Shown here one piece after another: positions 9,868 to 10,020 of a DNA stretch of 63,457 bases. A program made the position numbers and the translations under genes. The stretch lies in the NCBI GenBank assembly GCA_018819285.1, contig JAHJQM010000023.1:1-63457 (forward strand), given 5' to 3'. Positions within the stretch are counted from its first letter, which is position 1. Each line of letters starts with the position of its first letter. Origin of the DNA: Candidatus Omnitrophota bacterium (GTDB taxonomy: Bacteria; Omnitrophota; Gorgyraeia; Gorgyraeales; Gorgyraeaceae). Under the pieces are notes generated by a model. That model had not been told where the DNA came from. It was given only the letters and a program-made list of their open reading frames with translations, and did not search any database.

Positions 9868-10020
9868 ATGGGTAAGAATAATAAAAAACAATACCAAAAG
9901 CCAGAATACAAAAAGTTTTTTAAAGAACCGCAGTTGAAAAAAGAAGGAAAACTTATTGATCAGATAGGGAAAAGCTGTTCCAGCTGTAGCACTTGTTCCA
10001 GCTGTGCCTGTGGTTCTTAG
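9868..10020 (+). CDS. Putative RiPP precursor peptide, 50 aa (MGKNNKKQYQKPEYKKFFKEPQLKKEGKLIDQIGKSCSSCSTCSSCACGS)
   Basis: RBS AAGGAGG (9855-9861) 6 nt before ATG; YxxP and FxxPxLxxxG leader motifs; Cys/Ser-rich C-terminus; directly upstream of RRE and rSAM genes. Confidence 0.85.
   Translation: MGKNNKKQYQKPEYKKFFKEPQLKKEGKLIDQIGKSCSSCSTCSSCACGS

Follow-up and report, generated by a model that had tools for sequence, protein, structure and literature searches.

A short Cys-rich open reading frame in a Candidatus Omnitrophota contig as the likely precursor of a peptide modified by a PqqD and radical-SAM/SPASM operon

Introduction

Does a 50-codon open reading frame (ORF), lying in front of an operon of peptide-modification genes, encode the substrate of that operon? 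The ORF is located at 9868-10020 on the forward strand of contig JAHJQM010000023.1 (63,457 nucleotides, termed the window here), which belongs to the genome of a Candidatus Omnitrophota bacterium (GCA_018819285.1; G000; 1.56 Mb in 69 contigs). Seven same-strand genes follow it, including two for PqqD-family proteins and one for a radical S-adenosylmethionine (radical-SAM)/SPASM enzyme, and these are followed in turn by rpsO and pnp. We propose, with a probability of roughly 0.8, that the ORF is the precursor gene of a ribosomally made, post-translationally modified peptide that would be processed by the downstream operon. Comparative genomics carries this proposal: relatives of the peptide, with a conserved leader and a variable core, accompany PqqD and radical-SAM/SPASM genes in other genomes and in metagenomes. 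Which chemistry the enzymes would perform on the peptide is a separate question, to which the answers below are more graded.

The Precursor ORF and Its Signals

The ORF is the sole one of at least 30 residues on either strand between 9614 and 10180, within a spacer of 624 bp that extends from the end of a divergent gene (9613) to the first PqqD gene. Its translation is MGKNNKKQYQKPEYKKFFKEPQLKKEGKLIDQIGKSCSSCSTCSSCACGS. The features of the spacer are as follows.

9868-10020, forward strand: precursor gene P0001, 50 codons plus stop, from the ORF scan and translation; homologues adjoin orthologous operons.
9855-9861, forward strand: ribosome-binding site AAGGAGG, 6 nt 5' of the ATG; unchanged in the closest relative, locus L011.
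9813-9841, forward strand: promoter-like TTGACT-17-TATACT, score 10/12; TTGACC-17-TATACT in L011.
9868-9969, forward strand: proposed leader, residues 1-34, ending in Ile33-Gly34 (putative cleavage site), from leader conservation with L011 and the hydrophobic-Gly pair of the family.
9892-9909, forward strand: leader motif YQKPEY (Tyr9, Lys11, Pro12), from alignment A3.
9919-9936, forward strand: second motif FKEPQL, at -17/-14/-12 if the cut follows Gly34; putative function.
9970-10017, forward strand: proposed core KSCSSCSTCSSCACGS, from translation; varies between relatives.
9976-10011, forward strand: tandem pair of 18 nt (9976-9993 and 9994-10011) encoding CSSCST and CSSCAC, from a repeat search; copy 2 is 78% identical to copy 1.
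10118-10176, forward strand: conserved non-coding block with promoter-like TTGATA-17-TATTTT (10141-10169); 55/59 nt identical to L011.

The initial annotation, made from the sequence alone, had described most of this, and its description agrees with ours for the ORF itself, the ribosome-binding site at 6-nt spacing, the promoter match, a Lys-rich leader free of Cys (11 Lys and no Cys in residues 1-35) and a tail with five Cys, eight Ser/Thr (seven Ser, one Thr) and no Asp/Glu in the last 15 residues. The 12-mer TGTTCCAGCTGT, which it had found at 9976 and again at 9994, extends to the 18-nt tandem pair. Its further claim, growth of the core by internal duplication, is plausible given the tandem pair and the shorter core of L011, although the data do not give the direction (gain here or loss there). 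The tail pattern C-xx-C-xx-C-xx-C-x-C-G-S is likewise present as it had reported, but the terminal Gly-Ser is no feature of the family, as only 4/9 aligned precursors end in Ser.

A promoter scan of 9500-10400 returned 11 promoter-like sites, compared with 5.2 +/- 2.6 in shuffled sequences; because the spacer is so A+T-rich, the promoter match alone is weak evidence. In the same interval no terminator-like site was found, and RNA folding of the spacer at 10015-10240 was no better than that of shuffles (z -0.19). No Rfam family overlaps the ORF; the two matches obtained are at chance level and both lie away from it. Conservation of the block at 10118-10176 stands out from its flanks, where 37/64 and 16/39 nt are identical to L011, and points to the modification genes having a promoter of their own; the block may be a separate promoter or an operator for these genes. 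In metatranscriptome run X24, with 0.05 of the sampled words, no sequence could be placed on 9700-11000, which does not imply absence of expression. The exact peptide was not among the proteins returned from a collection of 5.8 billion proteins, in which only two relatives of 47 residues were obtained.

Conservation in the Closest Relative

The closest relative of the operon, L011, encodes an enzyme orthologue of 89% identity and was found in 1/12 other genomes of the genus; no close orthologue was found in any of the 12 genomes of other genera searched in the same family (0/12). L011 has the same gene order as the window and an ORF of 47-49 residues at the same place. The stretch from promoter to ribosome-binding site is identical at 72/77 nt and leader codons 1-29 at 82/87 nt, with three synonymous codon changes and one non-synonymous change. 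Identity falls to 13/21 nt in codons 30-36, and the core differs by an in-frame 9-nt indel, such that the L011 core is three codons shorter with four Cys, compared with five in the window. As flanking non-coding DNA is also conserved, nucleotide conservation with L011 is not by itself proof of coding.

A Peptide Family That Accompanies PqqD and Radical-SAM/SPASM Genes

In a phylum-wide search of 401 genomes, the enzyme was detected at E <= 1e-45 in 10, including the source genome. Five loci fetched from this search (L023-L027), which represent five other Omnitrophota families and share 41-49% identity in the enzyme, each have an adjoining short ORF with the leader motif Y-x-K-P-x-hydrophobic-x-K and a Cys-rich tail; precursor ORFs were seen in L024, L025, L026 and L027, and that of L023 is a one-Cys form. 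A related peptide ending in CKQCSSCHSCR is encoded in a Syntrophorhabdaceae record (L013; enzyme identity 36-38%). Homologues of the small ORF stand beside PqqD and radical-SAM genes in 7/7 genome loci (L011, L013, L023-L027) and in 12/13 PqqD-bearing metagenome loci. This is the comparison by which the initial annotation had proposed to judge its claim that the peptide is the operon's substrate; the conserved leader, the variable core and the association with PqqD support that claim.

The metagenome loci came from a scan that gave 460 relatives among 589 pattern matches, of which the best 80 were used with 3-kb flanks; altogether, 87 related loci were compared, or 88 operons with the window. 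With 13 seeds, a leader profile picked up 16 segments at E <= 3.4e-5: the seeds themselves and three new ones (L109, L023 and L040). The next best match had an E value of 0.31. By a PqqD profile, 20/87 related loci have a PqqD gene, and the precursor is present in 19 of these 20, the exception (L089) being a contig of 1483 bp; the 19 include three loci with tandem copies (L074, L075, L081) and one recognised by eye (L093, E 1.1). Among the 67 PqqD-less loci, no leader-profile match was obtained below E 0.3. An earlier pattern screen (aromatic-x-K/R-P plus at least two tail Cys) had flagged 18/80 metagenome loci, including many obvious chance ORFs, and was replaced by the leader profile; 12/80 were finally accepted.

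A quick tree of the enzymes (SH-aLRT support, midpoint root) was built from the window and 86 of the 87 loci, one having been left out because it did not reach the limits of 250 residues and E 1e-20. In this tree the window belongs to a group of nine rows (SH-aLRT 90), all nine of which have a precursor, and in the sister group of eight rows none was found within the available flanks. Presence of the precursor requires five changes on the tree, compared with 18.8 in shuffles. The HPr-kinase-like gene described below is present in 8/8 other loci of the window's group.

When 1.84 billion representative proteins were searched with the profile of alignment A3, 17 matches were obtained at E <= 0.001, 16 of which are 44-58 residues long. 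The 15 that were read share one build, typically ...YEKPxhKK...IGAAG...(Cys/Gly-rich)...W/Y/S. On these sequence comparisons the peptide family is real but rare; it is small, apparently undescribed and known here from uncultured Omnitrophota bacteria. No description of it was found in the literature, in a search that did not extend to subscription-only papers and supplementary files.

The tandem-copy loci L074, L075 and L081 have two to four precursor genes each, with the leader form PY-x-x-PK-hydrophobic and (Gly-Cys)n cores. In L023/L012, three overlapping ORFs (171, 134 and 161 aa) occupy 6069-7381 on the reverse strand between the GT2 and PqqD genes and look like a frameshifted transposase; the L023 precursor lies elsewhere in that locus, at 10720-10854.

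Leader and Core Architecture

In alignment A3 (nine sequences), Tyr9, Lys11 and Pro12 are the sole invariant columns, and the same YxKP motif is present in 15/15 family peptides read from the profile search. The sequences thus describe a family that travels with the pair of PqqD and radical-SAM/SPASM enzyme and combines an invariant Y-x-K-P leader with a hypervariable, Cys-rich core. A conserved leader joined to a variable core is the pattern of modified-peptide precursors, and in the window the short ORF is also adjacent to and co-oriented with the genes for PqqD and the modifying enzyme.

The second motif lies at a 4-residue insertion (FKEP) that occurs only in the window and L011. If the cut follows Gly34, Phe18, Pro21 and Leu23 are placed at -17, -14 and -12 and Ile33 at -2, which are the offsets of lasso leaders; for phosphorylated lasso precursors, PMC10368454 names Tyr(-17), Pro(-14), Leu(-12) and Ile(-2). 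Related peptides from single-PqqD loci often carry a second Pro 8-13 residues past the first, and thus the second leader motif is only partly clade-specific. Prediction of a complex of both PqqD proteins with the precursor (alignments A4, A5 and A3) gave scores of 0.23 and 0.08, against a mark of 0.32, and so gives no answer either way.

Toward the C-terminus the family diverges. A hydrophobic-Gly pair precedes the core in 12/19 family peptides (A3 plus the profile matches), and 9/19 end in Trp or Tyr. Ser or Thr occurs no more than three residues before the first Cys in 17/19, which is weak evidence in cores so rich in Ser/Thr.

The Modification Operon

The genes downstream of the precursor and the divergent gene upstream of it are as follows.

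10238-10573, forward strand: PqqD-family protein 1 (peptide-recognition element); PF05402, 66.3 bits.
10542-10823, forward strand: PqqD-family protein 2; PF05402, 63.5 bits; 35% identity with the first.
10832-11989, forward strand: radical-SAM/SPASM enzyme without a fused recognition domain; PF04055 and PF13186.
11973-12983, forward strand: HPr-kinase-like P-loop protein; TIGR04352 HprK_rel_A (E 3.5e-9) and ScmC (E 3.9e-6), both under cut-off; P-loop GNSGCGKTT.
12964-14205, forward strand: GT4 glycosyltransferase; PF00534; homologues in 6/8 other loci of the window's tree group.
14139-14606, forward strand: Lasso-B2-like transglutaminase-fold cysteine protease; NF033537, 47.8 bits (over the cut-off of 33), and PF13471.
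14645-15583, forward strand: GT2 glycosyltransferase; PF00535; weakly like MftF (74.9 bits, cut-off 280) and SunS (E 7.3e-5).
8456-9613, reverse strand: divergent NTP_transf_5 nucleotidyltransferase; PF14907, 131.9 bits.

Where related loci have a single PqqD, it resembles the first PqqD protein of the window (28-38% identity) more closely than the second. The L011 orthologue of this first protein begins at a GTG equivalent to the one at 10277, which may be the true start in the window as well. For the HPr-kinase-like protein, atlas neighbours carry the annotations Hpr_kinase_C (13%) or ScmC (11%), which serve as a lead only, and the match to solved structures is confined to the P-loop segment of phosphoenolpyruvate carboxykinase. 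The B2-like protease contains GTCLKRSL, GHAWL and LDD, which presumably supply a Cys-His-Asp triad; no sequence match to it was found among solved structures. Homologues of the nucleotidyltransferase are present in 6/8 other loci of the window's group, the remaining two having 3-kb flanks only.

The Radical-SAM/SPASM Enzyme

The cluster motif CxxxCxxC (CNWxCxHC, residues 24-31) and the downstream SPASM Cys columns are invariant in eight orthologues. The full SPASM domain together with five potential Cys donors in the core is the combination expected of sactipeptides and ranthipeptides. Among NCBIfam models, the best match is TIGR04340 of the ACGX system (185.5 bits, cut-off 400), followed by SbtM (147.7 bits, E 4.8e-43, cut-off 350). 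Among solved structures the best matches are 5wgg/5why (E 5.6e-14), which we take to be CteB, and SkfB; an anaerobic sulfatase-maturating enzyme is also among them (E 4.5e-6). The match to 5wgg begins at its residue 99, and the window enzyme has no N-terminal recognition domain. CteB is a ranthipeptide synthase according to PMC11002830. Because the nearest solved relatives are thioether formers and the models score under cut-off, thioether bridging of the Cys-rich core is favoured, with other Cys chemistry kept as a rival; by this analogy we give bridging slightly less than an even chance.

Elsewhere in the genome, contig C1 carries two more radical-SAM genes (1185-3082), with 30-31% identity to the operon enzyme over its N-terminal half.

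A Lasso-Type Toolkit without a Lasso Cyclase

Several of the accessory genes have counterparts in clusters for phosphorylated and phosphoglycosylated lasso peptides (paeninodin, pseudomycoidin, BsfA), which use the same PqqD-type B1, B2, HPr-kinase homologue and nucleotidyltransferase. In these systems, HPr-kinase homologues phosphorylate a Ser of the precursor, and the nucleotidyltransferase adds hexoses to the phosphate (PMC8498205); the phosphorylated residue is the C-terminal Ser or Ser3 of BsfA, and B1 (PqqD) and B2 remove the leader (PMC8498205; PMC10368454). The window has both elements of the leader-removal pair (PF05402 twice and NF033537 over its cut-off); the lasso-specific PqqD models reach 52 bits, where 80 and 70 would be needed. 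Its peptide also ends in Ser, and it would share with lasso precursors the aromatic-x-x-P-x-L and Ile spacing given above if the cut does follow Gly34.

The difference lies in the cyclase, in whose place the window cluster has the radical-SAM/SPASM enzyme. No Asn-synthase-type lasso cyclase was found among the window genes at 207-22234; in a PF00733 search of the genome, the only strong match was on contig C50, and weak matches fell at 53-55 kb of the window. Past residue 31 the precursor contains neither Asp nor Glu with which a macrolactam ring could be closed. As the cluster lacks a cyclase and the core lacks Asp/Glu, its gene content and sequence indicate that a macrolactam "lasso" cannot form here.

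Homologues of B2 are present in 7/401 genomes of the phylum, including the source genome. In three of the loci (L125, L126, L127) the B2 homologue is accompanied by an NTP_transf_5 gene and by more distant radical-SAM genes. Of these three, L125 and L126 also have a detected PqqD, while L125 and L127 have an HprK-like gene. B2 thus occurs with clusters of both the radical-SAM and the cyclase kind, which argues that the two share one toolkit in this phylum.

In L125 (G242:C1), the operon consists of NTP_transf_5, HprK-like, PqqD, radical-SAM, B2, a second radical-SAM, ABC transporter and PMT_2 genes. A candidate precursor of 61 residues lies there at 5411-5596, with the leader motif FVEPCM and a hydrophobic, Cys-free core that ends in Ser-Ser; judged from its sequence, it would be a different type of substrate for the same toolkit. 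In L128 (G388:C1, about 3995-8180), an Asn-synthase-type protein (661 aa, PF00733) is encoded beside HprK-like, NTP_transf_5 and B2-like genes; by its gene content this looks like a canonical lasso-type cluster, and since it joins the cyclase with these genes, the lasso toolkit is present in the phylum.

Comparison with Other Known Systems

The ACGX system, which comprises the TIGR04340 enzyme and the TIGR04341 (target_ACGX) peptide, is known only bioinformatically, and the literature search turned up no paper on it. Like that system, the locus pairs a short Cys-rich target with a SPASM enzyme, and the window enzyme covers positions 2-339 of the 341 of TIGR04340 (E 1.5e-54), but at less than half of the cut-off score. 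The tetrad ACGS, of the form that the family name suggests, occurs in the window peptide and in that of L024. TIGR04341 (cut-off 28 bits) gave no match at E <= 10 to seven precursors and none in the whole genome, and no curated precursor family of NCBIfam credibly matched the window peptide or six relatives.

Ranthipeptide and sactipeptide systems (CteB with SCIFF, PapB, SkfB) share with the locus a radical-SAM/SPASM enzyme, a Cys-rich C-terminal core and PqqD-like leader recognition. In the window, however, the recognition element stands alone as its own protein instead of forming an N-terminal domain, PapB and StsB score far under their cut-offs (77.7/340 and 83.4/625 bits), and the peptide matches no curated precursor model. 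To our knowledge, these systems include no kinase, nucleotidyltransferase, glycosyltransferase or B2.

HprK-like, PqqD-like and radical-SAM/SPASM proteins do occur together in the SynChlorMet cassette (ScmC/D/E/F) and the HPr-rel-A system (TIGR04352), whose function is uncharacterised and on which no literature was found. The corresponding scores of the window proteins are far from the cut-offs (ScmC 26/125, ScmD 39/100, ScmE 92/400, HprK_rel_A 36/200 bits). Mycofactocin (MftA-F) resembles the locus in combining a PqqD chaperone, a radical-SAM/SPASM enzyme, a peptidase and a GT2 on a short peptide, and differs in score (MftC 127.5/265, MftF 74.9/280) and in having a conserved C-terminal motif, where the present family has variable C-termini and a patchy distribution.

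The locus therefore falls outside the ACGX system by enzyme and peptide, outside lasso peptides by cyclase and acidic residue, and outside both the curated sactipeptide/ranthipeptide maturases and mycofactocin. Its gene content is most like that of a pathway in which a PqqD-dependent peptide is modified by a radical-SAM enzyme and in which tailoring and leader removal are of the lasso type.

A Proposed Pathway

One or both PqqD proteins would probably bind the leader through YxKP and, in this clade, also through FxxPxL. The radical-SAM/SPASM enzyme would then modify the Cys-rich core, for which bridges from Cys sulfur to carbon, as made by CteB and SkfB, are the leading candidate at the slightly less than even chance given above. 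More tentatively, by analogy with the phosphorylated lasso peptides, the HPr-kinase-like protein may phosphorylate a Ser of the core, to which the nucleotidyltransferase and the glycosyltransferases may add sugar; Ser50 is one possible site, and the Ser/Thr closely preceding the first Cys is another. A C-terminal Ser as the general site of phosphorylation in the family was considered and rejected, in view of the 4/9 aligned precursors that end in Ser. Finally, there is an even chance that the B2-like protease, with a PqqD as its B1, would cut the leader off after Ile33-Gly34.

A more far-reaching version, which we regard as unlikely in its entirety, would make the locus an undescribed class of modified peptide, in which the lasso toolkit for recognition, peptidase and phosphoglycosylation has been re-coupled to a radical-SAM/SPASM enzyme that replaces the cyclase. 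Each PqqD would read one leader motif, YxKP for the radical-SAM step and FxxPxL for B2, an assignment of two motifs to two proteins that is speculation. The bridged, phosphoglycosylated product would be passed to the adjacent envelope-glycan machinery (Wzy_C ligase-like, PMT_2, GT2, GT4) and would serve as a glycopeptide of the cell surface, not as a secreted antibiotic.

Several observations weigh against this pathway or against single steps of it. In 67/87 enzyme loci neither PqqD nor precursor was found in the DNA compared, which for most of them comprises 3-kb flanks only; many of these loci sit among other radical-SAM and glycosyltransferase genes, and the wider enzyme family may therefore not be restricted to peptides. 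The enzyme scores under every NCBIfam cut-off (ACGX 185.5/400, PapB 77.7/340, StsB 83.4/625), and so its reaction is not assignable by homology. Leader removal by B2 rests on one lineage, because among the 88 operons B2 and the second PqqD are each present only in the window and L011, and the hydrophobic-Gly junction is found only in 12 of the 19 family peptides. The HprK-like gene is present in 8/8 other loci of the clade, yet only 4/9 precursors end in Ser, and phosphorylation of the paeninodin type at the C-terminus is therefore not a general rule. No exporter or immunity gene was found next to the operon in the window. Not all close strains have the proposed promoter. DNA runs X2, X3 and X6 showed close strains only, and in the contigs of X2 and X3 the stretch corresponding to 9750-9853 is replaced by 27 other letters; the ribosome-binding site and the ORF are retained there.

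Alternative Explanations

One alternative to the proposed pathway would keep the precursor and change the chemistry: the enzyme would convert Cys to thiooxazole-type heterocycles, as SbtM does, or by an oxidation of the formylglycine type, and the product would be a metal-binding peptide with many thiols or heterocycles. SbtM is the second NCBIfam match and is described as a radical-SAM/SPASM enzyme that makes thiooxazole from Cys (PMC11002830), and the sulfatase-maturating enzyme noted above points in the same general direction. Cores such as GCGCCGCCCCW or CCGCGCGCGCGGY have few non-Gly acceptors for bridges, and one family member is weakly like heterocycloanthracin/thiazolylpeptide precursors (E about 0.01). 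The SbtM match is nevertheless far under its cut-off and covers only the generic enzyme body (profile 194-515), the best solved relatives are thioether formers, and neither a selenocysteine signal nor a metal-handling gene was seen in the operon in Pfam and NCBIfam scans; we consider this chemistry improbable. In a second alternative, the peptide might be a scaffold for a small redox cofactor or metabolite, as in mycofactocin or PQQ, of which a few C-terminal residues would be kept and then glycosylated. The layout of the operon (PqqD, radical-SAM/SPASM enzyme, protease, GT2) does parallel mycofactocin, the enzyme and the GT2 match MftC (127.5 bits) and MftF (74.9 bits), and the frequent Trp or Tyr at the C-terminus (9/19) would suit such a product. 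Both matches are under their cut-offs of 265 and 280, however, and cofactor precursors have conserved cores, whereas here core and C-terminus vary even between operons related at 89%; the patchy distribution (1/12 genus genomes and 0/12 other genomes of the same family) also suits an accessory product better. A cofactor role is highly improbable on these grounds.

It could also be that nothing is translated, the ORF being a chance frame or part of a non-coding regulatory region, and the conservation of flanking non-coding DNA with L011 (72/77 nt upstream) is compatible with this. Against it stands the conservation of the peptide across families in which the DNA can no longer be aligned, together with an indel that is in frame and leader substitutions that are biased to synonymous changes. 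The strong ribosome-binding site and the absence of an RNA family match or an unusual fold argue in the same direction. We give this reading next to no credence, and these comparisons indicate that the ORF is a real gene.

Neighboring Genes

Past the nucleotidyltransferase, at 207-8528 of the window, lies an envelope-glycan block with genes for a GT4, two Wzy_C proteins, a GT2, a PMT_2 and a B12-radical-SAM protein. Homologues of GT2, Wzy_C, PMT_2 and B12-radical-SAM genes recur near the peptide operon in L023, L025, L026 and L027. From this arrangement of genes, the peptide and the assembly of glycans may be functionally connected.

Beyond the other end of the operon, between rpsO and pnp (15894-15967), there is a sub-threshold Rfam match to mir-3931 (26.7 bits, threshold 49). 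It is most likely the hairpin of the rpsO terminator or of the pnp leader and not a microRNA.

Implications

A gene that automatic annotation missed thus probably encodes the substrate of an operon of eight genes in an uncultured bacterium with a small genome. The main interest of the locus is its mixture of parts, in which recognition proteins, protease, kinase and nucleotidyltransferase of lasso type are set around a radical-SAM/SPASM enzyme, and which illustrates module exchange between classes of peptide-modification pathways. One peptide, two PqqD proteins and one enzyme make a small, defined system for learning how this enzyme clade acts on poly-Cys cores, and the pairing both of PqqD genes and of leader motifs makes it possible to test whether two recognition elements read the same leader.

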